The notes under the pieces are model-generated. The model saw only the letters and a program-made list of their open reading frames with translations. It had not been told where the DNA came from and did no database searches. A stretch of 64,000 nt of DNA from positions 1 to 64,000 of the IMG/VR virus record IMGVR_UViG_3300031555_010392. One strand, given 5' to 3'. Position numbers and translations under genes: made by a program. The stretch is from a virus. Its lineage: Duplodnaviria > Heunggongvirae > Uroviricota > Caudoviricetes. Position 1 is the first letter of the stretch. Each line of letters opens with the position of its first letter. This document shows positions 2,586-28,392 of the stretch, piece after piece.

Positions 2586-5500
2586 TTGGAAACACTTGTC
2601 CTTTCGGTAATTAACTCCAGAGAACCATTGGGGTACACTTCATCGATTAGACAGACAGTGTGGCTAAAAATCGAGTCTGAATATTTCTTGGGGAAAAAAT
2701 TATCTCCGCGGCGAATGCCCGTAAGTAAGAGCTTTGTGCCACGAGTAAACCAAGATTTTTCAAGAATAGACTTGTCGCCTTCTTCGTTTACCGCAGAGAT
2801 CTGGCGGTTGTAATGCGCATAAGATCCCGCATAGAACTTAACTGTGACAACCCCATCGGGCGTTAAAAGTGTGACCGTATGCTTGTTATTATTTCTATCA
2901 AGCACTGTACCGATAATCCTGAAGAGGCGATAACGATTCCAAGTAAGATCTTCGCCAGTTTTGCGATCTGTTCGTTTTTCAACGGCTTCAACAATAGGGT
3001 CTTCAGGAAGTGAGGCAAAATTGGTAATTTGATAGGCTGAGCGATCTACGCCATCTAATTCATGTTTGGTGTAATAAAAAGACAAGCTGTCCATTTCCCA
3101 TTTTGCTTCATCACCACCGCAGTATTTTGCAAACTGCTCATTGATAAATCCTTCACGCATACGCTGATTAAAGGCAGACAATGTCGAGGGCGATTTGATC
3201 CAAGCGGTCATTTCTTCCGCAATGGATTTAAAGTGCTTTTCAAATTTTGCGTGGTATAAAACAGGGGTATCGTCATCATAAAAATAATCGACGCCCTCTG
3301 ACATAAATTTGAAAAGTTCGTTTTCAAAAAAGATTTGAGCCGTTTGGTCTAAACGGTAAGCCTTGGGTTTATTGGAGTATAGGAATTTTGGCTTGCAGAC
3401 GTAGCTTCTGAAATGCACCAAACGTTTTGCAAAATCAAATTTCTCTGGGAGGAAATTATTTAGACCAATTATGGCTGCAAAATTTTTGAAGTCTAAGCTC
3501 TTTTTATCTTCAACTTTCTGATGAGCAAGATAATTCATAAGCTCTAACATTTCTTCTGAGCGAGATTTTCCGCTAAGAGACTGAAAGCATCCGCCCTTCA
3601 CCAAAGTAATAAGAGCCGCCATTTTGATTTCAGGGTTTCTGGAGCAAAAATCTGTGATACTTGTATAGGGTCTACGTTCAATTATTTGCTTAACAATGTC
3701 ATCGCCTATGCCAACCATGCCTTTGAGACCAAAAATAATACGGTTATTAATGGCATCTGGCGTGAATCCGAAGCCACCGTGGTTGATATCAGGAAGAGCG
3801 ATCTGTACGCCCTGAGACTGCATATTGCCTATAGCGGAAGCGACTTTGCCATAGTTTGTGGATTTGTTATCGTCGTTATCTTCATTGGCGGAGGCATTGA
3901 CTGTGAGACATGCGGTTTGCCAATAAATATGCGGATAATGATGGAAGAGGTTCATTTCTTGAAGAGCAATGCAACTATAGGGGAGCGTATGATTTGAGGA
4001 GAATGAATACCCCAACTGAGGCGTCACATCGTATTTCCAAACATAATCAAGAAATTCTTTTCTTGTGCCAAGCTCAGCACCCTTCTTATAGAACAGCTCT
4101 TTGCTTTCAGTAACGAGCTTGGGCTTTTTCTTTGCAACGGCTTTACGGATCTTGTTAGCTTCTTGCATGGTGAAACCAGAAATTCGTGGGTCCATGCACA
4201 GCCGCATCAAATCCTCTTGCTCAATGGAACAAAGATAGTTTTCAGAAAGAATATCTTCAATAACTGCCATCTCATTTTCCGTTAGGCCAGCATCAACCAT
4301 TTCTTTTCTTCGCAATTCCGGGCTCTTCTTCATCATGACAAAATGATCAATAGGCACCATTACGTCATTACCCATAAGCCTCATCACGGAGTTGGTAAGG
4401 GAAAGCTCCTTCAGAGATTGAGGACGAACTTTTTTGATCGCTTCGCTCCCGACTGGAGTGTCCATTTGGAAAAGGTTATAAACCTTACCATCACTGGCTT
4501 CAGCCCACATATCAGGCGAATCATAATCCAATACATCTGGGTGGATATATTTATCATATGTCTTTTTAAGAGAGCCTTGCCATTCGATCTTTTTATCTTT
4601 CAACAGAAGTTCCAGACAAATCTGGATTTTATCGCAGCCTTCTACAGTTAGAAAGTCTTCTTTAAGGCCGGAGCAGGCTTCGCTGTCGCCCATATCCCAA
4701 GCGGTACAATCAAGCCCTTGAGGGGATTTCATGAGGCTGTTGTGCTCAATGTAAGGGGCGTTGTAAATAAACACAGAGCTTGCATGGATACCGCGTCCAG
4801 AAACAAGGCCTTCGATTTCTGCAATGGTTTCCATGAGCGAGGGATAGGCAGAAATACGATTGATCAATTCTTTAACAGGCTGATGCCCATTATCTTCAGT
4901 GCCCTCCTTACACTCTTTAAGCGTCCAAACTTTACCGCGGGTGATGGGGACAAGAGAGGAGAGCTCAGTTGCAATATCACTGTCGATATCCAAACCGCGG
5001 CAAGCAGTTTTGATTGCTGACTTCGTGGCTTCAGTCCTAAAAGTGATGGTATTTAAGCAACGATCTGCGCCAAAAACATACTTTACACGCTCTAAAATGG
5101 CCTCGCGTCTACTGGCGCACGAATCCAGGTCAACATCGGGGCAGTCTGGACGTGAAGCATGCAGATGCCTCCACGGAACCGTGCCCCATTTAATAGGATC
5201 AAGCTGGGTAATAGACATGAGATATCCTAAATACCAACCTCCCACAGAACCTCTTGCAACGCCTACAACGCTTTCATTATCAGGACGTCCGGGAGGAGTA
5301 AAAGCGCCGTTTTCATTCCACATGATTTGGACAATGAGCTGCGTGAGATTGTAATATGCGCTCATAGGTTGCCCAAGACGTTCAGAGACGCCCCATAGCT
5401 GTTCTAACTCATAATTAATGCGAGATAGATGAAGATCATCAAACGGGGCTTCTTTCTCCACCATTCCAATTTCAAGCTGCTTCATGAGCCAGAGATCCTG

Positions 5501-6532
5501 TGCCTCTGGACTGGAATAGTATTTATGGATATAAGGATATAATTCAGGATTCACATCCAAAGAACGATTTACGATAAACGGTTCCAATTTGCGTTGAGGA
5601 ACAATGGTGGGGTGAAACAGCCCATAATCCCCGGCATTTTTGCACATATCGGCAATCGCTAGAGTATTTAGAAAACCTGTCTCGATATCCTCAAGCGCCA
5701 AATCATCCTTCATGCGCTCAATCATTTCATCCGGCGTTTTAAGATAGGTGCTTTCATAAAAATCACCAGCTTCACGCTCTTCCTCGTGAGATTTCAAATA
5801 ATTCTCATGTAGGACACGCTTATCTTTTGACAAATAGTGGGCGTCATTTGTGATGATCCATTTAAGATCAAAATGCTTACAGAACTTAATTGCTCTGGTA
5901 TTAAACAATCTTTGGTCATCCGTGAGGCCAGGCTGAAGTTCAACAAAGAAGTTTTCTTTTCCAAACTGAGTCTGGCACCATGATACGAATTCATAGGCCC
6001 CCTTTACATCTCCCGCAAGGGTAAGCTTATCAAATTCTCCACCCAGACATGCTGTACTTGCCACAAGATGGCCGGGGTTTTTACCTACGATTTCTTCGAT
6101 ATCAGAATAAAAGGTTGGGAGCCTTTCGACGCCTTTGAAGGAATAACATCTACCCCAAGCTCTTGAAGAAAGCAATCGAAGTTGTCTATGTCCAATGGCA
6201 TCTTTGGCCAAAAGAACAAAATGATAAAAATGCCCACTTTCTATTGGGAAATATGTTTTTCCATTATCAGCGGTATATGGGTCACAATCATGGCAAAGAT
6301 AAATCTCATTCCCCAGTATCAATTGAAAATCAGGATTTGTTTTATGGATTTCTTTTAGGCAATTCAGAGCTTTGATATGGCCTGAAAGGCATTCGTGATC
6401 TGTGATAGAGATACCATGCAGCCCGATTTGAGCTGCATGGTTGATAAGTGCGCTTGTTTTATTGATACAATCAACAAGGTGGGTATTTGAATATTCTGTA
6501 TGAGCATGATGCTCGTGAAAGCGCTTATTCAT
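2582..6532 (-). CDS. dnaE: DnaE/PolC-family replicative DNA polymerase (PHP domain + Pol III alpha core), ~1316 aa
   Basis: N-terminal PHP motif HxHxEYSxxD...ITDH..L.G...GNE right after start; length ~1300 aa; start re-called to MNKRF (6532) 5 nt after a GAGGAGGA RBS; ORF-track N-extension has no RBS. Confidence 0.7.
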   Translation of the reverse strand: MNKRFHEHHAHTEYSNTHLVDCINKTSALINHAAQIGLHGISITDHECLSGHIKALNCLKEIHKTNPDFQLILGNEIYLCHDCDPYTADNGKTYFPIESGHFYHFVLLAKDAIGHRQLRLLSSRAWGRCYSFKGVERLPTFYSDIEEIVGKNPGHLVASTACLGGEFDKLTLAGDVKGAYEFVSWCQTQFGKENFFVELQPGLTDDQRLFNTRAIKFCKHFDLKWIITNDAHYLSKDKRVLHENYLKSHEEEREAGDFYESTYLKTPDEMIERMKDDLALEDIETGFLNTLAIADMCKNAGDYGLFHPTIVPQRKLEPFIVNRSLDVNPELYPYIHKYYSSPEAQDLWLMKQLEIGMVEKEAPFDDLHLSRINYELEQLWGVSERLGQPMSAYYNLTQLIVQIMWNENGAFTPPGRPDNESVVGVARGSVGGWYLGYLMSITQLDPIKWGTVPWRHLHASRPDCPDVDLDSCASRREAILERVKYVFGADRCLNTITFRTEATKSAIKTACRGLDIDSDIATELSSLVPITRGKVWTLKECKEGTEDNGHQPVKELINRISAYPSLMETIAEIEGLVSGRGIHASSVFIYNAPYIEHNSLMKSPQGLDCTAWDMGDSEACSGLKEDFLTVEGCDKIQICLELLLKDKKIEWQGSLKKTYDKYIHPDVLDYDSPDMWAEASDGKVYNLFQMDTPVGSEAIKKVRPQSLKELSLTNSVMRLMGNDVMVPIDHFVMMKKSPELRRKEMVDAGLTENEMAVIEDILSENYLCSIEQEDLMRLCMDPRISGFTMQEANKIRKAVAKKKPKLVTESKELFYKKGAELGTRKEFLDYVWKYDVTPQLGYSFSSNHTLPYSCIALQEMNLFHHYPHIYWQTACLTVNASANEDNDDNKSTNYGKVASAIGNMQSQGVQIALPDINHGGFGFTPDAINNRIIFGLKGMVGIGDDIVKQIIERRPYTSITDFCSRNPEIKMAALITLVKGGCFQSLSGKSRSEEMLELMNYLAHQKVEDKKSLDFKNFAAIIGLNNFLPEKFDFAKRLVHFRSYVCKPKFLYSNKPKAYRLDQTAQIFFENELFKFMSEGVDYFYDDDTPVLYHAKFEKHFKSIAEEMTAWIKSPSTLSAFNQRMREGFINEQFAKYCGGDEAKWEMDSLSFYYTKHELDGVDRSAYQITNFASLPEDPIVEAVEKRTDRKTGEDLTWNRYRLFRIIGTVLDRNNNKHTVTLLTPDGVVTVKFYAGSYAHYNRQISAVNEEGDKSILEKSWFTRGTKLLLTGIRRGDNFFPKKYSDSIFSHTVCLIDEVYPNGSLELITERTSVSN

Positions 6533-6782
6533 CGTCATCCTCCTCATGCTTGTCAAGCATTTCCTCGGCAACGCTGACAACGGAGGAATCGAAGAACCAA
6601 TGAATGACTGTATGCACAGCCAAACCTGTGCCAAACATACAGCATGCCACTCTCGTGAGCTCGGTTAAACATAAGATGGGGAATGCGGCAACAACACAAA
6701 TGCCGCAAATGATATCAAGAATGAAAACGAGACTGAGAAGTATTCCGATAGGGATCACTCCTTTTGATTGGCGTCTTGACAA
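6525..6782 (-). CDS. hypothetical small hydrophobic/membrane protein; start uncertain (TTG or internal)
   Basis: two hydrophobic stretches, acidic C-tail EEDDDE; stop overlaps polymerase start; no convincing RBS. Confidence 0.3.
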   Translation of the reverse strand: MSRRQSKGVIPIGILLSLVFILDIICGICVVAAFPILCLTELTRVACCMFGTGLAVHTVIHWFFDSSVVSVAEEMLDKHEEDDDE

Positions 6783-11681: not shown

Positions 11682-14315
11682 TTACCAGACAAAGGTTTCG
11701 GGGTCGGTATTCACGGGCTTTTCTTCCTCAGTTTCGTCAAGGATGGTTTCAATACTGGTGTTTTCCACATCCAAACGTTTATAATTGCGGTCAGTTACAA
11801 AAAGATCAGTCGTGCGGAGAGTGGCATAATCAAAATGAAGAAATAGTTTTACATGGTTGAGCTTGCCACGTCTGACTTTATAGATGTGATATACAAGATT
11901 AGGCGGTTTGTAGAACGCCTGAGCCATAATGGATTTTGTGGCTTCAAGATCTTTTTCTGTCGGCTCAAGAACTACATAGCCAATATCGACTTTGTCCGCT
12001 ATACCCTTAGCACCGCGAATGAGACTTTGATCAGGATCCTTGCAATTCTTCCAGTCGCCGCTCGCCTGAGTGGATGTATCGATATGGATATTCAATCGAT
12101 TGCAAAGAGATTTCATGCGATCAGAGAACATAACGAGCACATTATCTTCACGAATGTTGACGCCTCTGGTTTTTTGTGCGATCTCCATAAGGATCTTGGT
12201 AGAAGAAAAGATGTAGTCAAAGTAGAGATGAGAGATCATATGCTTGCGCTTATAGGTACAGGCTAGATTCTCAATGTCGTCTACATTGAACTGAGGGATA
12301 TGTTCGATCCACAAAGGAGCCTCGGAAACGATTTGGATTGCTTTATCTACACGTTCTTCTTCGCCGGGAGCATATTTGCCATCGAGGATATGTTCTTCAG
12401 GCACGCATGCAACATAGGCAAGGATCATGGTTTGAACTTCTTCTGGTTCAAGCTCAGTGGTGATGTAGAGGGTTGGTTCGGCGCATTTGGTTTTTACCCA
12501 ACGTTTAAGATCGGGGTCATAATACTTTGAAATGGCGCCTAGGCAAGCATCTGAAAGAGAAAGGCGGGTGTTGTGAGTGACGATGTAGTCAGAACTCACA
12601 TACAACGCATCTTCGTTATCGACTGTAAGGCAAGTCATATCTACATATCGGTCTGTAGGAATGATGTCTACAATGGCGTTGTAATCCTTATAAGAATCTC
12701 GATGAGATCTTGCTGCATACGCTTCAGCAATTGTTTTTTTCCTGGGAAGCTTAAACAGACTGGGCTTTAATGCGCGTGGACACTGAATGTATATTACGAA
12801 ACAAACGCCGGACTTATACTTTGCTCTATTATCGAGTCCGGGGACGGCAGTCAGGCCAAGGCTTCTACAAAGGGACAGCATACAATCCTTCATTGTAAGG
12901 CTTGTTGTTGTGAAAGAAATTCTCCCCTTGTTTTCACTGTCGATATGGCCGTCTGTATCCAACAGCCCACGCAGCAACTCGAAGCGTTGCTCTACTGAGC
13001 CCATGAGATAGTCGCCAGGGATATATTTTTCTTCCGAGTATGCACCAGATAGATTAGGATATTGTGCGACTATATCTGCCACATGAATATTTTTACCATC
13101 CTTCTTAAAATAGTAAGAGTAATTGTTGCAATTAGGTTTGATTACATCCCATTTCATTACTTCGCCAATATGGGTGGGGAGGATACTATCTTCTGAAGAA
13201 TAATAAAAAGTATTGCTTCGCTCGCTTGTTCTAAAGCTTCCGTCCCCCAAAAATAGCCCCATAATGTAAGGGGGAATCAAAAATTCTTTTTCTGGATGTT
13301 GGACGGGCTGGCACAAAGGAACTCTGCATTTAAAAGTGCCTCCAACGCCCTCTCTCCAATGCCCAGAATAGCGCTCTAAAATTTGAGCCGTTGTTTCTAC
13401 GCGATATAATTCGGGATTGTGTCGGTCATAATAGTAAAACCAAAGATGATCATCGCTACATTCATGCATACGACCATCGTAAAACTTAACTTCGTATACA
13501 CGTTTTTTATGTGGTTGATGATGCACGGCAAGAACTTTCGTAGGCTTGCCATCTCGGCCAAGCAAAACATCGCCTGGTACCATATCTCCAATTGCTTTCC
13601 ATCCCTGATCATATGTTGGAATCATCGTATAATCAGGGGCACATTTTCCTAGGCCCGAGGGCGCCGTCCTCAGATAAAACTTCTTAAGTCTTCGGCCTCT
13701 GCAAATGGTAGTAAGCTTTTTGGAGTTCATTGGCGCTCCCATCTCAGGACGCTCCATGAGAGACTTTTTCAGCTCTACCATACCTTCGGCAGCCTGTCCA
13801 CCAACTCGTCCGCCAACGTTGGAAAATTCGCTTTTGATTTCAGACAGCTTTCCTTCATAAAAAGCGAAGATGTCTTCAAGTGAACTATTATCCAGCTTTT
13901 CTCTGGCAATCTTCTGTACAGATGGGTCTGCAGAAGTGTTATTGTAATACTCGCCAACATCAATGCCAGCCTTCACCAGCTTATTCAGAAGAGAATACTT
14001 TTTAAGTGTTTTATAATGAAGGGTAAAGTTGCCATCCGCCATCGTATTGATCAGTGCATTGATATAAGCCTGACCACCATTAGTGGTGAACAGATGGTAG
14101 TGTTCTGGATAATTGGAAATATACTCATCAATGGACATGACGTTGATATTTTCCGCGCCATTCAGAGACAAATTAGCAATAGCCGTAAAGACGATTTTAT
14201 GAAAACGCTCAGGAAAATCATCGGGCGTTAAATGAAAACGTTCGTCCATAAACAAATACGGATTTTTGATAAGCTCTCCAAGGACATGGAGAGTAACAGC
14301 TTTATCTTGAATCAA
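11682..14315 (-). CDS. dnaB: DnaB-family replicative helicase precursor containing an intein in the Walker A loop
   Basis: N-domain aligns with DnaB (AVTLHVLGEL...DDFPERFHKIVF); P-loop APSGLGK|C...intein...HN|TRLSL reconstitutes GLGKT; C-terminal TELEPEEV and FDYIF match DnaB; TTG start. Confidence 0.8.
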   Translation of the reverse strand: MIQDKAVTLHVLGELIKNPYLFMDERFHLTPDDFPERFHKIVFTAIANLSLNGAENINVMSIDEYISNYPEHYHLFTTNGGQAYINALINTMADGNFTLHYKTLKKYSLLNKLVKAGIDVGEYYNNTSADPSVQKIAREKLDNSSLEDIFAFYEGKLSEIKSEFSNVGGRVGGQAAEGMVELKKSLMERPEMGAPMNSKKLTTICRGRRLKKFYLRTAPSGLGKCAPDYTMIPTYDQGWKAIGDMVPGDVLLGRDGKPTKVLAVHHQPHKKRVYEVKFYDGRMHECSDDHLWFYYYDRHNPELYRVETTAQILERYSGHWREGVGGTFKCRVPLCQPVQHPEKEFLIPPYIMGLFLGDGSFRTSERSNTFYYSSEDSILPTHIGEVMKWDVIKPNCNNYSYYFKKDGKNIHVADIVAQYPNLSGAYSEEKYIPGDYLMGSVEQRFELLRGLLDTDGHIDSENKGRISFTTTSLTMKDCMLSLCRSLGLTAVPGLDNRAKYKSGVCFVIYIQCPRALKPSLFKLPRKKTIAEAYAARSHRDSYKDYNAIVDIIPTDRYVDMTCLTVDNEDALYVSSDYIVTHNTRLSLSDACLGAISKYYDPDLKRWVKTKCAEPTLYITTELEPEEVQTMILAYVACVPEEHILDGKYAPGEEERVDKAIQIVSEAPLWIEHIPQFNVDDIENLACTYKRKHMISHLYFDYIFSSTKILMEIAQKTRGVNIREDNVLVMFSDRMKSLCNRLNIHIDTSTQASGDWKNCKDPDQSLIRGAKGIADKVDIGYVVLEPTEKDLEATKSIMAQAFYKPPNLVYHIYKVRRGKLNHVKLFLHFDYATLRTTDLFVTDRNYKRLDVENTSIETILDETEEEKPVNTDPETFVW
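12570..13643 (-). mobile_element. intein (358 aa) with LAGLIDADG homing-endonuclease domain inserted in dnaB P-loop
   Basis: starts Cys (CAPDYTMIPT, TGT at 13643-13641), ends His-Asn followed by Thr (VTHN|T, AAC at 12572-12570); two LAGLIDADG motifs IMGLFLGDGSF and LLRGLLDTDGHI. Confidence 0.75.
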
Positions 14316-19771: not shown

Positions 19772-20500
19772 TTATACGCCTCCATTTACACTATAAGCAC
19801 GAGCACGTTTTTCCATCTGTTCTCTTTCAAGCTTTGTCCAGTTGATCCAGCCATAAATACAATTGGCCGTCCAGCCAACATACATGGCAACCATAGACCA
19901 GTTCCCGGCAACCCACCACAGCTTGATGCAAAGCACATCAATGATCAGCCACCACAGCCACTGCTCACGATAGCGGCGAACCATGAGGATTTGTGCGAAA
20001 ATAGCCATGACATTGGTAGCAGCGTCTGTGTAAGCCTGCGCAGAACCAATAAGAGTGAGAATATGACCCATGGCGATTGTAGCAATGACGGTGCCAATGA
20101 TAGACAAGAGCCACTGAACAGGTGTAAAGACCAGAGCAGAAACGTCCTGAGTTCCATCCTCGTTGGTTTCCATGTTAGACTTCCAGACGAAGATGCCCCA
20201 AATCATGGTAACAAAGTACCAGAGGTTTTCAATGACTTCACCATAAAAGCGATTCTGCCATGCGAGAACCAGATAGGTGATCGTCTGTGCAAAGCCGATG
20301 AAATAGAAAGCCAGCTTGCCTTTGGCGCAGAGCACAACAGAAATGACGCCAGCAATACCGGCAATGATATTCAAAGGAGAATCAGGAACGATACAAAAAA
20401 CAACGATCTGCAAAGCGACCATTGACCACAAAAAAATCTTTTCAAAAGCGCTGTAACCCGTCCAGAAGGTACGGAGAAACCAAGACGAAATAGCCTTCAT
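19772..20500 (-). CDS. pnuC: nicotinamide riboside transporter PnuC-like membrane protein
   Basis: ~240 aa, 7-8 TM, Trp-rich loops, translationally coupled (ATGA) to NadR gene upstream. Confidence 0.65.
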   Translation of the reverse strand: MKAISSWFLRTFWTGYSAFEKIFLWSMVALQIVVFCIVPDSPLNIIAGIAGVISVVLCAKGKLAFYFIGFAQTITYLVLAWQNRFYGEVIENLWYFVTMIWGIFVWKSNMETNEDGTQDVSALVFTPVQWLLSIIGTVIATIAMGHILTLIGSAQAYTDAATNVMAIFAQILMVRRYREQWLWWLIIDVLCIKLWWVAGNWSMVAMYVGWTANCIYGWINWTKLEREQMEKRARAYSVNGGV

Positions 20501-21606
20501 CGATTCATTACCTCTTTTACATAATCAACAATAGTCATGAAGTTTTTGTAGTAATCGCCGCCATTCAAAAACACGACGCGATCCATAAGACCAGCATATT
20601 CCATATGACAAATCAGCTTATTCAGCAGCTCGTTTCTGCTGCCGATATCGGAATGATGCATGAAGCGGGTGTGATCATCTACAAAAGTATTTTTAGGAAC
20701 GAGACAGAAGATCTTATCCCATCGCGATTTCTGCGTTAACTCATCCGCCATAGCGGCTACACGCTGGTACTCTTCAGGAGTGATAGCGCAATGGGGGTCT
20801 TCGGAATACATTTGAGCATACATTTTGGTGACAAGCGAATCTGTATCAGCGAAGAATACACCATGGTTGCCAGGGCTATTGATGAGCTGTTTGTTCAAAT
20901 GATACTGGCCTTCAAGGAAAGCCATAAAATCTGCGCCGTCCAATTCCCAATCAGCAACACAGGATTCTTTCATATAATCCCTTGCCCATTCATAAGAACA
21001 GGGGGCATTGAAATACTTGCCAAGATCTTGAACAAGAGTGCTTTTGCCTTCTGAAGCTGTACCAGTGATTAGGATATTATGACTGAACACTCTGCGGAAA
21101 GGAGCGGCAATCTGATCCCAATGCTTAATAGGATTCTGACGGATCATGGTAGCGCAAATGGGATTAGTGGCTTTGCGATCTACAAGAATGACGTTCTCAT
21201 CCCACATGTCTTTCAGATCGCGAGCATAGTTTTCATCGCCAACATACCAGCAGCGGTCAAAGCCCGTAGCAGCCATATACCAAATGTTCTCAAACTCGTC
21301 CATCCAAACAGGCCAACCATTGGGATACTCTGCAATACCAAGTCTTGAATCATTAATAGAGTAAACGGCTACTTTGTCATCATCTGCAAAGAATTCGCGG
21401 ACATAACGATAGCGCTTGGCATGGGGCATAAGGGGTTCGCCTTTATCACCATCATAACCACAGACGATGACCAGGCAACCTCCCTCATTTTCTTTTTTGG
21501 CCCTCATGATCAGATCCAAATGCCCCTGATGGAGTGGGGCAAAGGAGCCAAAGACAATTCCCACTTTTCCTTCAAGGGGCTTCTGATAAGCATGAAAAGA
21601 AGTCAT
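20497..21606 (-). CDS. nadR: NadR-like bifunctional NMN adenylyltransferase / ribosylnicotinamide kinase
   Basis: FAPLHQGH (HxGH nucleotidyltransferase motif) and ITGTASEGKST Walker A of the kinase domain; start re-called to MTSFHAY (21606) with GGAGGT RBS. Confidence 0.8.
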   Translation of the reverse strand: MTSFHAYQKPLEGKVGIVFGSFAPLHQGHLDLIMRAKKENEGGCLVIVCGYDGDKGEPLMPHAKRYRYVREFFADDDKVAVYSINDSRLGIAEYPNGWPVWMDEFENIWYMAATGFDRCWYVGDENYARDLKDMWDENVILVDRKATNPICATMIRQNPIKHWDQIAAPFRRVFSHNILITGTASEGKSTLVQDLGKYFNAPCSYEWARDYMKESCVADWELDGADFMAFLEGQYHLNKQLINSPGNHGVFFADTDSLVTKMYAQMYSEDPHCAITPEEYQRVAAMADELTQKSRWDKIFCLVPKNTFVDDHTRFMHHSDIGSRNELLNKLICHMEYAGLMDRVVFLNGGDYYKNFMTIVDYVKEVMNR

Positions 21607-21732
21607 ATAAACCTCCAATTGACAAATATGGTAAAATAAAAATTGGTACGGTGCTCCGCGATGGGAGAATGGGCCTTCATAGATCATCTTGGGTAGCTAC
21701 TGCCTTAGACGACTATGAAAGGAGTGATGCAT

Positions 21733-22436: not shown

Positions 22437-22517
22437 TGGGGATAATGGGACTTGAACCCATACGCCGTTTGGCACCAGATCCTAAGTCTGGCGCGTCTGC
22501 CATTCCGCCATATCCCC
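22437..22517 (-). tRNA. tRNA-Leu(TAG): tRNA-Leu (anticodon TAG), type II with long variable arm
   Basis: 7-bp acceptor GGGGATA/TATCCCC, anticodon arm CCAGA-CTTAGGA-TCTGG, variable hairpin GCC-AAAC-GGC, T-arm ATGGG-TTCAAGT-CCCAT. Confidence 0.75.
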
Positions 22518-22528
22518 TTAAGAAAAAG

Positions 22529-22603
22529 TCGAGGTGGTGGGATTCGAACCCACGCTCTCCACATCCCAAATGTGGCGGGATAGCCAAACTTCCCTACACC
22601 TCG
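22529..22603 (-). tRNA. tRNA-Pro(TGG): tRNA-Pro (anticodon TGG)
   Basis: acceptor CGAGGTG/CACCTCG, anticodon arm CCACA-TTTGGGA-TGTGG, T-arm GTGGG-TTCGAAT-CCCAC. Confidence 0.75.
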
Positions 22604-22608
22604 ATAAA

Positions 22609-22766
22609 TAGCGATGGTGGGATTCGAACCCACGATGGCGCCTATGGCGCGAGAATTATTCAGTAAGACACCTTACAACTTAGCACCTTGGCCTTGAGCG
22701 CAGTTCTGCTACTACCCTTACTGAGATCGCGACTCTTCTCTGCTTCGTCCACTTACATACATCGCC
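22609..22766 (-). other. tRNA-like element: perfect T-arm + acceptor 3' strand at 22609-22640 pairing with GGCGATG at 22760-22766; ~158 nt, not a canonical tRNA
   Basis: GTGGGTTCGAATCCCAC T-arm identical to neighbouring tRNAs; no recognisable D or anticodon arm between; GCGCC-ATA-GGCGC hairpin before T-arm. Confidence 0.25.
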
Positions 22767-22956
22767 GATGCCCGTACTCTTACAACCGGCGGCTTAGGCA
22801 GAAGAAAGTGCTCTGTGAAGTAGATTCTTCTGCTTTATGAGCCACCCAGGCATGGTATAGAGCTTTTGTTTATCGGTACTCACAGGTACTCTAACCACCG
22901 TGTTTTCATTTCGCTTCAGCATTTACGCATTGGCAAGGAAAAACATAAACCTCTGG

Positions 22957-23028
22957 GCGCGGGAGATGGATTTGAACCATCGATCTTCAGCTCATGAGGC
23001 TGACGAGATACCACTTCTCTATCCCGCA
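22957..23028 (-). tRNA. tRNA-Met(CAT): tRNA-Met (anticodon CAT), CCA encoded
   Basis: anticodon arm TCAGC-CTCATGA-GCTGA, T-arm GATGG-TTCAAAT-CCATC, 3' ...TCCCGCG-C-CCA; 1:72 is T:G. Confidence 0.65.
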
Positions 23029-23203
23029 ATGTGGTGGCTCTACGGGCGAGGCCGTGCATGACCTCTATATGAGAGATTTCATCAGGCTATCTTCTTGGCG
23101 TTTCTATCAACGTCTATTAATGCACGCCAGTTGCGATCTGGCTGTGGCCAATATTTTTACCTGACTACTTGCGCACATATACTGCACTACCCATAGAGCG
23201 TGG

Positions 23204-23276
23204 TGGGACTGAGGGGAGTCGAACCCCTGGCACCCTGATTAAAAGTCAGGTGCTCTGCCAACTGAGCTACAATCCC
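23204..23276 (-). tRNA. tRNA-Lys(TTT): tRNA-Lys (anticodon TTT), CCA encoded
   Basis: GGGATTG TAGCTCAGTTGGCAGAGC ... CCTGA-CTTTTAA-TCAGG ... GGTTCGACTCC. Confidence 0.8.
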
Positions 23277-23353
23277 ATGTTGTCTCGGATTACGCGCCGA
23301 GTCGCGAGGTGCTGCGTGATAAGGAGCGTCGCAATTATGTGCCTTTCGGCTGG

Positions 23354-23435
23354 TGCGGCTGGTGGGATTCGAACCCACAATCCCATAGGGCGGGAGATTT
23401 TAAGTCTCCTGCATATGCCGTTCTGCCACAACCGC
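23354..23435 (-). tRNA. tRNA-Leu(TAA): tRNA-Leu (anticodon TAA), type II, CCA encoded
   Basis: anticodon arm GGAGA-CTTAAAA-TCTCC, long variable arm, T-arm GTGGG-TTCGAAT-CCCAC, A73. Confidence 0.7.
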
Positions 23436-23441
23436 ATGTAA

Positions 23442-23514
23442 TACCACGGGTGGGATTCGAACCCACAAACGCCTGATTTTGAGTCAGGATGATATGCCAA
23501 TTCTCTACCGTGGC
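23442..23514 (-). tRNA. tRNA with anticodon CAA (Leu codon UUG) but short type-I variable arm; identity uncertain
   Basis: acceptor GCCACGG/CCGTGGT (G1:U72), anticodon arm CCTGA-CTCAAAA-TCAGG, 5-nt variable CGTTT, T-arm GTGGG-TTCGAAT-CCCAC, A73. Confidence 0.5.
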
Positions 23515-23520
23515 ACGATT

Positions 23521-23550
23521 GTGGCTTCCTTTCGGTAACGACGAGCCACG
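23521..23550 (-). other. inverted repeat GTGGCT...AGCCAC hairpin just downstream of the SPFH gene (possible terminator/processing site)
   Basis: gtggcttcctttcggtaacgacgagccac; no U-tract. Confidence 0.25.
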
Positions 23551-23564
23551 CGCCGGTAAAATCA

Positions 23565-24479
23565 TTACTTCACTTCATCTTCAATATCAATACCGTCAAC
23601 AGTGATCAATGAACTTCCGCCAGAAACCTTGGGCAGTTCACCGTTCCATTGATCGTACTTGATTTTCTCAATCAACTCGCTCGTGAGAGAAGAGGCAATC
23701 TTCTTATTGGCTTCAGCCTCAGCCTCTGCCGCAATCAAGAGTGCCTCAGCTTCGGCTTCTGCGGTAATAATAGCCTGATCTGCCTTAATGCTAGCTACAT
23801 TCTTATCTTTTTCAGCCTGAATACGGGCAGTTTCGGCTTCAATACCCGCCAACTCCTGTTCCTGCTGAGCATTAACCTTCTTCTGGATGGCAGTAGCGGT
23901 CTCTTCATCCACAGTGATTTCCGTAAAGTTGACAGTATCGATCACGATACCATAAGCATCAAAGCGATTACGAAGGTGAGTGTCCAACTCTGCGTTAATC
24001 TCAGTACGTTTGTCGCCAAAGATATCAGTTACAGGATACTTGGCTGTGACTTCCTGTGTCCATGCCTTAACTTTGGGCTTAATAAAATCGTTCTTAACTT
24101 CGACGCCGGACTTACCCTTAAAGCGAATGAACGTTTCAGTAATGCGCTCGCGATCAAAATAATAAGAGAATTCCAAACTAACACGCACAGACTTACCATC
24201 TGAAGTGGGCACGGTGAAAGACTCATCCTTGGGGGAATCACCCTCGTTAGCAGCAGTCAGATAAGACTGCTCAACACCAATAGAGTAAGTAGTAACCGAT
24301 TTCATGGGAGAAACCACATGGAAACCCTGGTCCACAACTTCATCGCCGACACCGTTGCGCATATTGTAGACCACGCCAACATAACCGGCAGGGATGCGTT
24401 CCGTACAGCCAAGAACCACGATAAAAGCGATAATAATTACAATAGCAAACAAAAATGCACCAAGCTTACCTTTTGTCAT
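23565..24479 (-). CDS. SPFH/band-7 (prohibitin/stomatin/HflK-like) membrane protein
   Basis: N-terminal TM anchor, SPFH core (GYVGVVYNMRNG...FHVVSPM...), long C-terminal coiled coil rich in AEAEAE. Confidence 0.8.
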   Translation of the reverse strand: MTKGKLGAFLFAIVIIIAFIVVLGCTERIPAGYVGVVYNMRNGVGDEVVDQGFHVVSPMKSVTTYSIGVEQSYLTAANEGDSPKDESFTVPTSDGKSVRVSLEFSYYFDRERITETFIRFKGKSGVEVKNDFIKPKVKAWTQEVTAKYPVTDIFGDKRTEINAELDTHLRNRFDAYGIVIDTVNFTEITVDEETATAIQKKVNAQQEQELAGIEAETARIQAEKDKNVASIKADQAIITAEAEAEALLIAAEAEAEANKKIASSLTSELIEKIKYDQWNGELPKVSGGSSLITVDGIDIEDEVK

Positions 24480-24688
24480 TCAACAGTCTCCTTTGTTCCA
24501 GTTGGGTTATTAAGTCCATGAGAATTTTCTTCTGATATGGAAGAAGCAGTTGTGGGTTTGTCATCCATGTTATCCCGTGCATCTTTCCATAAGCGATGAG
24601 CCAAGCGGCCAAGAGGTCGGTATAGACACGAGAAGAGGAGCCACACGAGCGCAAGCCCGAGGATGACGAGAAAATAGAATACAGGCAT
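24476..24688 (-). CDS. small membrane protein, likely partner of the SPFH protein (NfeD-like role)
   Basis: MPVFYFLVILGLALVWLLFSCLY TM helix; overlaps SPFH start by 4 nt. Confidence 0.4.
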   Translation of the reverse strand: MPVFYFLVILGLALVWLLFSCLYRPLGRLAHRLWKDARDNMDDKPTTASSISEENSHGLNNPTGTKETVE

Positions 24689-24825
24689 TTGTTCTCCTTT
24701 CAAAAAGAATAAATAACCCCAGCGTCCGTAGAACATCGTATGCATCCGACTGGTTTCTAACGTACACAGAAGCAAGGTAATTACTCCCCACTGCTTATGC
24801 CGTCATACTACCAACTGGGGGCTGG

Positions 24826-24899
24826 CGAGCGATTAGGGATTTGAACCCCAGACCTACGGCTTAGAAGGCCGTTGCTCTATCCGACTGAGCTAATCGCCC
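24826..24899 (-). tRNA. tRNA-Arg(TCT): tRNA-Arg (anticodon TCT), CCA encoded
   Basis: GGGCGAT TAGCTCAGTCGGATAGAGC ACGGC-CTTCTAA-GCCGT ... GGTTCAAATCC. Confidence 0.8.
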
Positions 24900-25038
24900 A
24901 TAATATCTCCCGATCAGCGCCGTTATGCGTTTTATGTTCATTCACATAAAGGGTTGCGCCACACAAGTAGAAGGATCTACCCGTTTCCTTTTGCAACAGA
25001 GCGCTCTGAAACTTCCTTCGGCACCGATGGGGATTTGG

Positions 25039-25110
25039 AGCGGCAGACGGTAATCGAAACCGCGTCTTCGGTTTGGGAAACCGATACTCTAACCATTGAG
25101 CTACTACCGC
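25039..25110 (-). tRNA. tRNA-Gly(CCC): tRNA-Gly (anticodon CCC), CCA encoded
   Basis: GCGGTAG TAGCTCAATGGTTAGAG TCGGT-TTCCCAA-ACCGA ... GGTTTCGATTACC; acceptor pairs with CTGCCGC. Confidence 0.7.
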
Positions 25111-25122
25111 ATATTGGCTGAA

Positions 25123-25770
25123 TTAAGCAATTGAACGATAATCTTTTGTATGATAGGGTAGACCATACTTTTTGCACCATTTCCGTACAGTGTTATCTAT
25201 GACACCGTAGCGTCGAGCAAGTAACGTGAAATTGCCATGGTTTTCAATAAGAAGCTGGCTAAGTTCTTCTTTTGTCGGCCAATCAACTTTCTTTTTGCCA
25301 ACATGCGCACAGTGGCTGCACCTTTCTGCTAAACGAGTTATTTCCGCACCGCAATCTTTACAGTAATAAAAGTGTTTAAAATGATGAGACTTATTATTTC
25401 TTCCAGCATAAGTTCTTGTTTGCGAGTGACAATTAGGACACAACCATCGGAGATTGTCTAAAGTGTTGTTCTTATTATTTCCATCTTTATGGTCGAGCTG
25501 GAGAACGAGAGGTCTTCCATTCCATTCACCTTTATGACCACAAATTGCACAGACATACTCAACGTTTTCCAACTCACGGAAGCGTCTTTTTATTGCATTT
25601 ACAGAAACGCCGCTCATTTCTGTAAAAATTTCTTCGTCCGCATAAACCTTATGGCTTTTGTTTTGATAAAGAGGTGGTTTAATACCGTATTCTTTAAGTC
25701 GCTTTTTAACGACAGCGTAACTGCCCCCTTTATTTGACTTATAACCAAGATTGTTAATTAATTCTGCCAT
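25123..25770 (-). CDS. HNH homing endonuclease embedded in the tRNA array
   Basis: DHKDGNNKNNTLDNLRWLCPNCH HNH motif plus additional CxxC/HxxC pairs. Confidence 0.75.
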   Translation of the reverse strand: MAELINNLGYKSNKGGSYAVVKKRLKEYGIKPPLYQNKSHKVYADEEIFTEMSGVSVNAIKRRFRELENVEYVCAICGHKGEWNGRPLVLQLDHKDGNNKNNTLDNLRWLCPNCHSQTRTYAGRNNKSHHFKHFYYCKDCGAEITRLAERCSHCAHVGKKKVDWPTKEELSQLLIENHGNFTLLARRYGVIDNTVRKWCKKYGLPYHTKDYRSIA

Positions 25771-25859
25771 TGACTGACTATTAGCGGCAATCTGTGCAAG
25801 CTCTTCTTTTGAATAACGATCAACTAGTGCAGCTATCTTACGCGCCCCCCATTAAAAAG

Positions 25860-25930
25860 CAAGCCCGCTTGGATTTGAACCAAGAATGAAACCGTCAAAG
25901 GGTCTTGTGTTGCCATTACACCACGGGCCT
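25860..25930 (-). tRNA. tRNA-Gln(TTG): tRNA-Gln (anticodon TTG)
   Basis: AGGCCCG TG GTGTAATGGCAACAC AGACC-CTTTGAC-GGTTT ... CTTGG-TTCAAAT-CCAAG CGGGCTT G. Confidence 0.65.
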
Positions 25931-25958
25931 ATGAGAGGTCTGTTACCAGACCCAATGT

Positions 25959-26204
25959 CTACTTTTTAAGCTCAGAGAAGAACTTAATCAGATAAGGCTC
26001 ATCTTCTTTATTCATACAAAAGACTTCATAATATTCGCCATGCTCATCACACAGACGTCCAATGGCAATATACTGAGAAAAGGTGGACTTGAGGTTAAAC
26101 TCCTCAGTACCATCAACAGAGCGAATGACTACATCGCCCTTGCACTTTTTGACGGCTTCCATAAGGGAATTAACATCCTTTGCGTTTTTAAGAAGCATAA
26201 ACAA
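25959..26204 (-). CDS. hypothetical protein with HPr-like C-terminal pattern (KSxF...G...GEDE...LxKL) but no active-site His
   Basis: NLKSTFSQYIAIGRLCDEHGEYYEVFCMNKEDEPYLIKFFSEL resembles HPr/Crh Ser46 region and C-terminal half; weak. Confidence 0.3.
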   Translation of the reverse strand: MFMLLKNAKDVNSLMEAVKKCKGDVVIRSVDGTEEFNLKSTFSQYIAIGRLCDEHGEYYEVFCMNKEDEPYLIKFFSELKK

Positions 26205-26229
26205 CCTCCTTTCTTTGGTAAGAGTAAAA

Positions 26230-26302
26230 TGGGCCTACAAGGATTCGAACCTTGAACCGACTGGTTATGAGCCAGCTGCTCTAACCGTTGAGCTATAGGC
26301 CC
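26230..26302 (-). tRNA. tRNA-Met(CAT): tRNA-Met/Ile2 (anticodon CAT)
   Basis: GGGCCTA TAGCTCAACGGTTAGAGC GCTGG-CTCATAA-CCAGT ... CAAGG-TTCGAAT-CCTTG TAGGCCC A. Confidence 0.8.
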
Positions 26303-26308
26303 GTGTGG

Positions 26309-26393
26309 CGGAGAGTGTGAGATTTGAACTCACGGAGGTGTTACCCTCGCTGGTTTTCAAGACCAGATCCTTAAGCCACTCGGACAACTCTCC
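26309..26393 (-). tRNA. tRNA-Ser(TGA): tRNA-Ser (anticodon TGA), type II, CCA encoded
   Basis: GGAGAGT TGTCCGAGTGGCTTAAGGA CTGGT-CTTGAAA-ACCAG long variable arm ... TGAG-TTCAAAT-CTCA ACTCTCC G. Confidence 0.75.
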
Positions 26394-26593
26394 AAACCGG
26401 GGCTGCGCATTACAGGCTACGCAGCCAAAATATAAGTTTGTTCATCCTGTACTGAACGGGTGATTTGTGATCCTACGGTATACTATCCAGCCTTTTGTGA
26501 AATGGCGGCGCTGTACATAGATGAGTTCATCGCTCCTGATGACGACGATAGAATGACCGCTTAAAGGCGAAGAGGAAACCGCCGATCACATGG

Positions 26594-26666
26594 TGGAGCT
26601 GAAGGGTTACGATCCCTCTGCCTCCTGCTTGCAAAGCAGGCGCTCTGCCGATTGAGCTACAGCCCC
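26594..26666 (-). tRNA. tRNA-Ala(TGC): tRNA-Ala (anticodon TGC) with G3:U70, CCA encoded, atypical T-loop ATCGTAA
   Basis: GGGGCTG TAGCTCAATCGGCAGAGC CCTGC-TTTGCAA-GCAGG ... AGGG-ATCGTAA-CCCT CAGCTCC A CCA. Confidence 0.75.
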
Positions 26667-26678
26667 ATGAGGAGTGGA

Positions 26679-27173
26679 TTACCACTCCAGAATTTCAGTT
26701 ACAATAGGCTCTGCGACGAAACAGGAAAGTTCGCATGCGACTTTAACAGCTTCATGTTCATCATGCCCAAGATGGAATGCGGCCATAGCGAAGTCTTCCC
26801 CGCAGCCTATAGCGGCGAAATCTTTCACTTCGCATACAAACAGACCATGAATTTCAAACAGCTTGTTTTTATAGGCGAGCAAATAGTCGTTTTCCGCTTT
26901 GGCCTCGCCGTCATATTCCTTACGCCATTTGGTGAATTCGATCATATGATCCAAGATAGCCTTCTCACTTGCATCGGCAGGATTGTGAGTGGTGATGTAA
27001 TGCCAGAAGAGGCTGGCTTCCTGCGCGGATCCCGCACTGCCGACAACGATACCATTCTCCTTTTTAAGCTTGGTAAAATTACCTTTGGTATCTTTTGTCC
27101 AGCCATGGACAACAATGCTGTCGGCACTCATAACGATCTTATTAGGGTAAACCTTCGCACAAACGACGCTCAT
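26679..27173 (-). CDS. HslV/proteasome-beta-like Ntn peptidase (Ser1 nucleophile variant), 164 aa
   Basis: N-terminus MSVVCAKVYPNKIVMSADS aligns to HslV TTIVSVRRNGHVVIAGDGQ; GSAGSAQEA matches G-x-A-G-S/T-x-A-D-A; start at 27173 with GGAGG 8 nt upstream. Confidence 0.5.
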   Translation of the reverse strand: MSVVCAKVYPNKIVMSADSIVVHGWTKDTKGNFTKLKKENGIVVGSAGSAQEASLFWHYITTHNPADASEKAILDHMIEFTKWRKEYDGEAKAENDYLLAYKNKLFEIHGLFVCEVKDFAAIGCGEDFAMAAFHLGHDEHEAVKVACELSCFVAEPIVTEILEW

Positions 27174-27330
27174 ATATTGAACCTCCGTAAGATTTGTTAA
27201 AGGGGAGGGGCGCTTAGATGGTGCTATGTTCAGCAACGAAAGCAACCACAGCGCCCCACTGGAGCCCGGATAGGCGGCCAGCCGAGCTTATAGCTCTCAC
27301 AAAGAAAGGAACCAAGGCACCAGGCCTTTG

Positions 27331-27403
27331 GAGTGGCAGACGGGATTTGAACCCGCAAACAATCGCCTTGGAAGGGCGATGCTCTACCATTGAACTACTG
27401 CCA
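27331..27403 (-). tRNA. tRNA-Gly(TCC): tRNA-Gly (anticodon TCC), CCA encoded
   Basis: GTGGCAG TAGTTCAATGGTAGAGC TCGCC-CTTCCAA-GGCGA ... GCGGG-TTCAAAT-CCCGT CTGCCAC T. Confidence 0.8.
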
Positions 27404-27507
27404 CGCACAATTCCCGCTTATTGACCGAAAGGGGAATGTGGCGAACGGAGTGGGTTGACCAGACCCTACATGAAAGAGGTACCACCAGTGCCTAACCTGG
27501 CAGTTGG

Positions 27508-27581
27508 AGCCGGTGAAGGGACTTGAACCCCCAACCTGCTGATTACAAATCAGCTGCTCTGCCTTCTTGAGCTACACCGGC
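27508..27581 (-). tRNA. tRNA-Thr(TGT): tRNA-Thr (anticodon TGT), CCA encoded
   Basis: GCCGGTG TAGCTCAAGAAGGCAGAGC GCTGA-TTTGTAA-TCAGC ... GGGGG-TTCAAGT-CCCTT CACCGGC T. Confidence 0.8.
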
Positions 27582-27591
27582 ATGAGGAAGG

Positions 27592-28392
27592 CTAAGGCCT
27601 CCCGCGTTTTTTGCCTTCGTCTGTGAGGCAGAAGTGGAACAGTGTATCATTCACCTTTTCTCTGAGGAAATCTGCAGTCTTGAAGCTCAGAGGAGGAAGC
27701 TCGTCCAGAAGCGCTTTGCGGATATCCGTCATTTCCTGATCCCAGGAAGCGATCTCGCTTTCTACAAAATATTTAGGAAAGGACTCGAGTTTCAGGCTGA
27801 TCAGGTATCTGCGGTCTTCCTCTTCGGGAATGAGATACAAGCCATCGGCTGCTCTGAAACTGCGAAGCATAACGAGGAGACGATACAAATGAGACGCGCT
27901 TTTTCCGTCATAGCCTGTGTCGGGGTGATCAGCCTCTTTTGATTTCATACCAGATTTGATTTTGATAAAGCTTCCACAAAGCGCTTTTACGAAAGATGGC
28001 GCCAGATCTTTAAGGAGGCTATACCGCTTTTCCAGGATCCACTCAAACAAATCGATGTTTTCATCAACGATCAAGTAGTAAGGCGTATACAGAGCTTCAA
28101 TATAGGAAGGATTGCATTTGATCACGGCATCCATGAAAGCTCTGATATCCTTCAGGTCGATAAAGCCATTTCCATAATGAAGAGAAGTGGAAAGCGGGGC
28201 TCCGCCTGCAACCAGGTCTTCCAACCTTGGGAGGATGACGCATTTGAAATCAAAGTCTGACTGATACTTGTCTGAAGAAATATCCAGACCATAATTCTGA
28301 CTGCCAGCCAGGCATACGAAGATGGGATGATACCCAAGGCTTCTTACATAAGAAGCGGCCTCGTTAAGTTCCTTGGAGTAGTTTTTAAGCAT
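27592..28392 (-). CDS. Pol-beta-superfamily nucleotidyltransferase with C-terminal helical domain (KNTase/ANT-like two-domain architecture), function unknown
   Basis: hhhhAGSQNYGLDISSDKYQSDFDFKCVIL = GS...DxD NTase signature, third acidic in GFIDLKD; AAGGAG RBS; sits immediately after the tRNA array. Confidence 0.55.
   Translation of the reverse strand: MLKNYSKELNEAASYVRSLGYHPIFVCLAGSQNYGLDISSDKYQSDFDFKCVILPRLEDLVAGGAPLSTSLHYGNGFIDLKDIRAFMDAVIKCNPSYIEALYTPYYLIVDENIDLFEWILEKRYSLLKDLAPSFVKALCGSFIKIKSGMKSKEADHPDTGYDGKSASHLYRLLVMLRSFRAADGLYLIPEEEDRRYLISLKLESFPKYFVESEIASWDQEMTDIRKALLDELPPLSFKTADFLREKVNDTLFHFCLTDEGKKRGRP

Follow-up and report, generated by a model that had tools for sequence, protein, structure and literature searches.

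Why should a phage carry, in the middle of a tRNA array, a gene whose product resembles the bacterial peptidase HslV? The question is raised by a gene at positions 26,679 to 27,173 of IMG/VR record IMGVR_UViG_3300031555_010392 (Caudoviricetes), of which we analysed positions 1 to 64,000; this whole 64-kb stretch is called the window below. A first-pass annotation, made from the sequence alone, had read the product as an HslV/proteasome-beta-like N-terminal nucleophile (Ntn) peptidase, and this reading is borne out by profile searches, by the predicted fold and by residue conservation. The gene very probably encodes a proteasome-beta/HslV-type Ntn hydrolase with a competent active site, its activity being predicted from sequence. 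It is a divergent, Ser1-type addition to an already described class of phage-borne peptidases that resemble the proteasome, HslV and BPH, the Betaproteobacteria proteasome homologue. The gene itself is as follows.

26679..27173, minus strand: coding sequence of the putative proteasome-beta/HslV/BPH-like Ntn peptidase, with its ATG at 27173; 164 codons plus stop

Translation of this minus-strand open reading frame (ORF) gives a product of 164 amino acids that begins MSVVCAKVYPNKIVMSADS, the same protein as had been quoted at first pass. Its length, which had been put forward as fitting HslV, is thereby confirmed, HslV being of similar length.

By sequence, the window protein is a remote member of the proteasome superfamily. 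A PHROGs scan returned phrog_1040, annotated as 'peptidase HslV family', over residues 3-163 (E=3.5e-22). The Pfam check that had been proposed for PF00227 gave a divided answer: the window protein itself had no match even at E<=10, whereas 19 of 35 close relatives matched this family weakly (best 7.1e-6). The direct Pfam scan gave no proteasome match, and the identification rests on PHROGs, on profile searches and on the fold. The NCBIfam HslV equivalogs were reached at E values of about 3e-4, with 20.6 bits against a cutoff of 157.75 for TIGR03692 and 19.6 against 137 for NF003964. Searched against the PDB as a single sequence, the protein aligned over its full length with S. aureus HslV at a non-significant E of 0.74. 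A 35-sequence profile of the family found T. brucei HslV at 1.7e-5, S. aureus HslV at 7.8e-4, BPH at 8.6e-4 and proteasome beta subunits at about 1e-2. For annotation, a protein overlooked by Pfam can now be named with confidence as a 'proteasome-like (HslV/BPH-type) Ntn peptidase'.

Structure prediction, which had also been proposed as a check for the Ntn sandwich, returned a confident proteasome-beta fold. The AlphaFold2 model, built with the family alignment, has a mean predicted local distance difference test score of 92.6 and a predicted template modelling (TM) score of 0.89. It contains the alpha-beta-beta-alpha sandwich of proteasome beta subunits in the proper order: a block of beta-strands, helices H1/H2 (residues 50-59 and 70-88), a second block of beta-strands, helices H3/H4 (residues 126-134 and 139-150) and a final strand, after which the model stops, with no insertions and no H5. 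In a Foldseek search with the model, BPH came out on top (TM 0.82-0.85) and HslV reached a TM of about 0.70. The earlier description of the protein as HslV/proteasome-beta-like holds, with the correction that the closest solved relative in the model is BPH and not HslV or Anbu. The HslV cutoff is missed, and the long C-terminal H5 coiled-coil helix of Anbu is absent. The modelled pore loop is short, H2 ending at residue 88 and the next strand running from 96, and in 89 of 143 relatives the segment 86-97 is 11 residues long. Conservation in the family peaks in H3/H4 and the strand that follows (...GEDFAxAALYLGHSPxEAVKVACELSCFVAEP...). In proteasomes, H3/H4 make the contacts between rings (PMC8665760).

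Conservation of the active site was scored over 143 full-length diverged representatives. Residues were matched to HslV with hhalign, by aligning the family profile to the E. coli HslV sequence, with Met counted on both; HMMER alignments to solved HslV chains agree with the result. The elements of the predicted active site are listed here.

27168..27170, minus strand: codon AGC of Ser2, the predicted N-terminal nucleophile (Ser1 after Met removal), aligned to HslV Thr1
27120..27122, minus strand: codon GAC of Asp18, by alignment the equivalent of proteasome/HslV Asp17; invariant (143/143)
27069..27071, minus strand: codon AAG of Lys35, the proteasome/HslV Lys33 equivalent; invariant (143/143)
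27030..27041, minus strand: G45-S-A-G48 block, aligned to HslV GFAG, in which Gly45 would be the oxyanion-hole equivalent of proteasome Gly47/HslV Gly45
26799..26807, minus strand: G123-C124-G125 loop, by alignment the equivalent of GSG in HslV and the proteasome

The hhalign result places profile position 9 on HslV position 9, which reproduces the match to the HslV start seen at first pass. It pairs Ser2 with Thr1 and Asp18 with Asp17, and, after a one-residue gap, Lys35 with Lys33; Lys35 coincides with the catalytic Lys in the HslV of S. aureus, T. brucei and E. coli. In the same alignment GSAG pairs with GFAG and IGCGE with IGSGG, and HMMER sets the GSAGSAQEA block, previously matched to a G-x-A-G-S/T-x-A-D-A motif, against GFAGSVADA. 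The claim that Ser takes the place of Thr1 also stands: of the 143 representatives, 121 have Ser and 21 have Thr at position 2, always directly after Met, and no other residue occurs there. Gly48 and Gly123 are invariant (143/143 each), Gly125 is Gly in 142/143, and position 45 is Gly in 125/143 and Ala in 16/143. The catalytic triad proposed for checking is present in its Ser1 and Lys equivalents and departs in the middle residue of Gly-Ser-Gly, which is Gly-Cys-Gly here. Either a lack of profile similarity or the absence of the catalytic Lys and Asp had been named as grounds for abandoning the assignment; similarity was found and both residues are in place.

A position after Met that admits only Ser or Thr, combined with invariant Asp and Lys, marks a functional N-terminal nucleophile that is uncovered when Met is excised. 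In the profile search of cluster representatives, nearly all relatives align from their own residue 1, which argues that there is no propeptide. Taken together, these features point to an active enzyme that would be matured by Met removal. Strong purifying selection acts on exactly the catalytic residues across hundreds of phage lineages.

Phage-encoded HslV-like peptidases had been described as rare, and this was not upheld. They form a named PHROG family, and phage-borne proteasome homologues were already described in 2021 (PMC8665760). When 1.84 billion cluster representatives were searched with the profile, the matches numbered 189 at E<=1e-30, 591 at E<=1e-10 and 3033 at E<=1e-3, and the relatives make up at least 1300 clusters at 90% identity. 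Relatives were found on 156 IMG/VR viral contigs, and the carriers are typically phage genomes of 75-238 kb. Only six of 185,579 species-representative genomes carry a relative (four Clostridia, one Rhodothermaceae and one cyanobacterium). In BFVD, 40 phage proteins match the model at E<1e-3, and their hosts include Vibrio, Gordonia, Caulobacter, Pseudomonas, Aeromonas, Serratia, Erwinia and Acinetobacter. A tblastn search of 50,697 phage records gave no match at E<=1e-5; at E<=1 it brought up isolated phages with 25-31%-identical genes, annotated as 'peptidase HslV family', 'proteasome subunit', 'nucleophile aminohydrolase' or 'protease'.

To describe the surroundings of the family, all genes within +/-10 kb were clustered for 46 loci. 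No neighbour family occurs in more than eight of them: dUTPase is found in 8, DUF5131-like proteins in 7 and ThyX in 6 (the latter two counted by eye), followed by HNH and portal proteins in 6 each, and by SPFH proteins and NAD-dependent ligase (by eye) in 5 each. No AAA+ protein recurs among the neighbours, and a conserved partner gene was rejected on these results. In the window, which covers only part of the phage genome, and as had been noted at first pass for HslU, no hslU or other AAA+ gene was found among the ORFs scanned with Pfam and PHROGs, including all ORFs of at least 330 amino acids, and the convincing Walker-A ORFs are of the helicase, Sak4 and NadR types only. A role as prohead protease was likewise rejected: the gene belongs to a replication/nucleotide module, and in Microbacterium phage WaterT capsid maturation is the task of another protease. 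Two of the relatives, P0078 and P0111, are long, and their C-terminal tails give no clue to function.

Among known systems, HslV/ClpQ/CodW is similar in being colinear, in having equivalents of Thr1, Asp17, Lys33 and GxxG, and in its length and short pore loop; CodW also uses Ser1, and phage relatives go under the label 'peptidase HslV family' in PHROG and with several annotators. The window protein is nevertheless not an HslV orthologue, because it scores 20.6 against 157.75 bits, has a Ser124 position that is Cys here and mostly Ala in relatives, and has no HslU/AAA+ in the window or recurring in the 46 loci. The closest solved relative by fold and by sequence, BPH (PDB 5ovs and 5ovu; Fuchs et al. 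2018, PMC5777263), has its Met removed to expose residue 1 and lacks a partner unfoldase (PMC5777263). The phage protein is alike in its predicted Met removal, in having neither a propeptide nor a partner unfoldase gene, and in its compact group I architecture. By the descriptions in PMC8665760 and PMC5777263, BPH has a long, highly acidic pore loop, whereas that of the window protein is short; BPH chains are about 185-200 amino acids long against 164 here. The catalytic Lys is Lys37 in Td-BPH and Lys34, in mature numbering, in the window protein, and BPH keeps a Ser139 that hydrogen-bonds Thr1 where the window family has Cys or Ala. The two share about 20% sequence identity, and BPH is chromosomal, in stress operons, whereas the phage family is phage-borne. 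Ser1 is unusual but precedented, being found in BPH outside Betaproteobacteria and in CodW (PMC5777263).

The 'group I' proteasome homologues comprise HslV, BPH, AAH, CPH and PPH, with BPH in a central position (Fuchs, Alva & Lupas 2021, PMC8665760, which gives WP_035979212 for AAH and WP_008185288 for CPH as reference sequences). As this group is described, AAH, CPH and PPH share with the window protein a compact build without S12/H5 or insertions, BPH as nearest neighbour, and carriage by Caudovirales. AAH has reportedly been spread into Firmicutes and Bacteroidetes by phages (PMC8665760), which fits the Clostridia and Bacteroidota-type assemblies in which we found relatives. PPH was rejected, as it has about 140 amino acids and no helix H2 (PMC8665760) whereas the window protein has 164 and an H2 at 70-88; the protein may belong to AAH, to CPH or to a sister cluster that has no name yet. 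The signature of connectase, which lacks H1/H2 and has a two-helix lid between S3/S4 (PMC8665760), was not found in the window protein either. The isolated phages of PHROG 1040, for example Vibrio phage henriette 12B8 (VPDG_00064), Microbacterium phage WaterT (gp15) and Sinorhizobium phage phiM5, have the same M-S/T start, Asp, Lys and GxG pattern, and in two of these examples the gene lies among early/nucleotide-metabolism or other non-structural genes, apart from the capsid maturation protease. They differ in sequence (25-31% identity) and in hosts, which are Proteobacteria and Actinobacteria; the two examples that were aligned have Thr1 where the window protein has Ser1.

The explanation that we consider reasonably probable as a whole is that the gene encodes a catalytically competent Ntn peptidase of proteasome-beta family 'group I' (the HslV/BPH/AAH/CPH clade), that it is an accessory early or middle gene of a large phage, and that the predicted enzyme acts without a dedicated ATPase. 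Under this explanation, Met1 would be cut off by the host deformylase and methionine aminopeptidase, Ser being a permissive second residue. The free alpha-amine and the hydroxyl of Ser1 would then attack peptide bonds by the classical proteasome mechanism, with Ser1 acting as nucleophile and general base partner together with Lys35 and Asp18. By analogy with HslV and BPH the subunit may assemble into a homo-oligomeric double ring, an expectation that comes from H3/H4 being the most conserved stretch and making the ring-ring contacts of proteasomes. The enzyme would act on peptides, unfolded proteins or specific proteins without a phage-encoded partner ATPase, and its action would be timed to the replication phase of infection.

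Several points weigh against this explanation. The equivalent of HslV Ser124/proteasome Ser129/BPH Ser139 is Cys124 in the window protein, and across the family (n=143) it is Ala in 95, Ser in 34 and Cys in 4; by sequence, the loss of the Ser that hydrogen-bonds the nucleophile is a departure from the canonical site. BPH was inert on all substrates tried (PMC5777263), so that the window protein need not show peptidase activity on substrates of a generic kind. Its pore loop resembles that of HslU-gated HslV in being short, in contrast to the long and acidic loop of BPH, and a host gatekeeper may therefore be involved. Finally, the literature searched held no functional or biochemical work on the window protein or its phage homologues, which are mentioned at the level of annotation only.

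A host gatekeeper is central to one alternative, in which phage rings would dock on the host HslU (ClpY/CodX) or on another AAA+ unfoldase and redirect ATP-dependent degradation as a surrogate for HslV. Colinearity with HslV over the full length of the protein would favour it, and so would Lys30-Gly-Asn, which aligns with Lys28-Gly-Asn in E. coli HslV, where Lys28 is the residue that binds the HslU C-terminus. The phage family differs from HslV in not conserving this Lys, however, as position 30 is D in 26, K in 19, a gap in 16 and E in 12 representatives, with others in the rest. The short pore loop is a feature of HslU-gated HslV (PMC8665760), and the Ser1 HslV of B. subtilis, CodW, is active only with CodX (PMC5777263). 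On the other hand, the score lies far under the HslV equivalog cutoff, no phage hslU was found in the window and no AAA+ gene is conserved in the 46 loci, the fold is nearer to the partnerless BPH, and docking would have to survive the very different HslU proteins of Clostridia, Rhodothermaceae and Cyanobacteria, from whose assemblies relatives come. We regard a surrogate of this kind as doubtful. Still less likely is an enzyme dedicated to one phage or host protein, which it would cleave, or transpeptidate as connectase does, while working as a monomer or small oligomer instead of breaking down proteins inside a chamber. Connectase is a monomeric, highly specific ligase of the proteasome-like family, and unprecedented quaternary structures are expected among new homologues (Fuchs et al., PMC8665760); the inertness of BPH on generic substrates also suggests narrow specificity in the clade. 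The model of the window protein, however, has both H1/H2 and H3/H4 and hence not the connectase signature, and the 46 loci offer no conserved neighbour as a candidate substrate.

Loss of the canonical Ser124/Ser129 position could also be taken as the mark of a non-catalytic mimic, an inactive subunit that would co-assemble with host HslV/HslU or titrate it and thereby block it, and phages often encode inhibitors of host proteases. A nucleophile that is only ever Ser or Thr, with invariant Asp18, Lys35 and Gly in 143 representatives, would be unexpected in a pseudoenzyme, and we consider this reading highly improbable. A chance ORF or wrong-strand artefact between tRNA genes, for which an overlapping plus-strand ORF might speak, can be dismissed, being refuted by more than 1300 homologues, by the confident fold and by the recurrence of the identical protein in several metagenome samples; a GGAGG site upstream of the start also counts against it. 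It is possible, albeit unlikely, that the Ser1 family is a distinct, unnamed viral branch of group I, and that its members are proteases, independent of unfoldases or hijacking those of the host, that rid the host of particular proteins, for instance defence or regulatory factors, early in infection. This suggestion comes from the at least 189 deep clusters found almost only on phages of 75-238 kb, from the short pore loop and from the lost Ser124/129.

Whichever of these applies, the question now is the role of the whole class of phage peptidases in infection, and not the existence of the window gene. With at least 591 clusters at E<=1e-10 the family is common among large phages, and its very clean catalytic signature makes it a tractable model. 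It can be used to ask why phages carry their own proteasome-type protease and whether a host unfoldase is needed, and further whether Ser1 enzymes without the Ser129 equivalent are mechanistically different.

The gene model and its position can now be described. The ribosome-binding site and the flanking tRNA genes, as called by ARAGORN, are the following.

27182..27186, minus strand: Shine-Dalgarno sequence GGAGG, 8 nt 5' of the ATG; read from the sequence, the minus strand runs ...ACGGAGGTTCAATAT ATG
27329..27404, minus strand: tRNA-Gly(tcc), directly upstream of the peptidase gene and on the same strand
26591..26666, minus strand: tRNA-Ala(tgc), directly downstream, starting 12 nt past the stop codon of the peptidase gene

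A longer version of 188 amino acids with a TTG start finds no support, since all the relatives start at M-S/T. The plus-strand ORF at 26652-27200 (182 amino acids), which overlaps the peptidase gene, was set aside as a shadow ORF. Contigs of several metagenome samples encode the identical protein, one contig being up to 137 kb long. The location inside a tRNA array that had been reported is literally correct: the gene lies between tRNA-Gly(tcc) and tRNA-Ala(tgc) in an array of 14 genes, all on the minus strand, at 22437-27581 (ARAGORN). A scan for promoter and terminator consensus sequences gave matches for the peptidase gene no commoner than in shuffled sequence, and a transcript shared with the neighbouring tRNAs is therefore the simplest reading and a probable one. 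tRNAs come as near as a few kb to the proteasome-like gene in few related loci only, e.g. L005, L021 and L057, so that the position is a trait of the lineage and not of the family. A functional link between peptidase and tRNAs was rejected for this reason, and the location in the array is incidental.

The array holds other protein genes as well. An HNH homing-endonuclease-like gene (Pfam HNH; PADLOC HEase, E=3e-18) lies at 25123-25770 on the minus strand between tRNA-Gly(ccc) and tRNA-Gln, which suggests that mobile or accessory genes insert into the array with particular frequency. An SPFH/Band-7 protein (PF01145, E=2.7e-24; phrog_200) is encoded inside the array at 23565-24479 (minus strand), with a small ORF upstream of it at 24476-24745 (minus strand). 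Cellular SPFH proteins partner with membrane proteases. Of the 46 related loci, five (the window, L006 and L022-L024) have an SPFH gene no more than 10 kb away from the proteasome-like gene, a weak association, although a link between SPFH protein and peptidase is conceivable. Directly upstream of the tRNA block, at 27592-28392 (minus strand), is a nucleotidyltransferase gene (phrog_388, E=1e-18; no Pfam match). In the related locus L005, positions 3702-6066 near the proteasome-like gene encode an RlaP-family protein and a CCA-adding enzyme (PolyA_pol/tRNA_NucTran2_2). These genes hint at a theme of tRNA maturation or repair in these phages.

Pfam and PHROGs scans of its ORFs show that the window is a part of the phage genome given to replication and accessory functions. 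Its products include a large DNA polymerase, an ATP-dependent ligase, a primase, a DnaB-like helicase, a Sak4-like annealing protein and exonucleases, and further a nicotinamide mononucleotide (NMN) transporter with an NMN adenylyltransferase besides the HNH endonuclease and SPFH protein. The peptidase gene is present in a single copy, no second proteasome-like gene being found in the window, and PADLOC gave no defence-system match. Megablast of the 20-kb neighbourhood against 50,697 deposited phage genomes returned tRNA-sized matches only and no close relative. The source phage is large and uncultured, and its hosts are taken to be anaerobic bacteria, probably clostridia. The NAD salvage pair at 19772-21687 (minus strand) consists of a PnuC-like NMN transporter (PF04973, E=4e-42) followed by a NadR-like nicotinamide-nucleotide adenylyltransferase (phrog_3462, E=1e-65) with a Walker A motif. 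The DnaB-like helicase at 11682-14249 (minus strand) has 855 amino acids, of which residues 200-564 match 'terminase large subunit' PHROGs and residues 590-828 match DnaB; this double match may reflect the insertion of an element (an intein, for example), a fusion, or mere P-loop similarity. A tyrosine recombinase/integrase (PF00589, E=1.9e-16) is encoded at 56559-57473 on the plus strand, in a large phage genome that has its own replication machinery and the 14-tRNA array.

Some related loci have features of their own. On the 238-kb phage contig L006, positions 1478-6739 carry the anaerobic ribonucleotide reductase NrdD in two ORFs (PF13597 twice), and the two halves are separated and flanked by DUF7487 proteins in a way that resembles disruption by a mobile element. 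The same locus, and no other, has an AAA (PF00004) protein about 9 kb downstream of the proteasome-like gene. In Vibrio phage henriette 12B8 (L098, 3633-4130), a peptide deformylase is encoded two genes upstream of the 'peptidase HslV family' gene. An Ntn peptidase needs its Met excised, and this excision comes after deformylation; as a single case, the proximity of the two genes may be a coincidence. Finally, tRNAs with a CTA anticodon, i.e. amber suppressors (called tRNA-Pyl by ARAGORN), were found at L035 2240-2311, L040 3163-3239 and L057 13057-13149, the last of these loci having a 22-tRNA array, and TAG stop codons may be recoded in some phages that carry the proteasome-like family.

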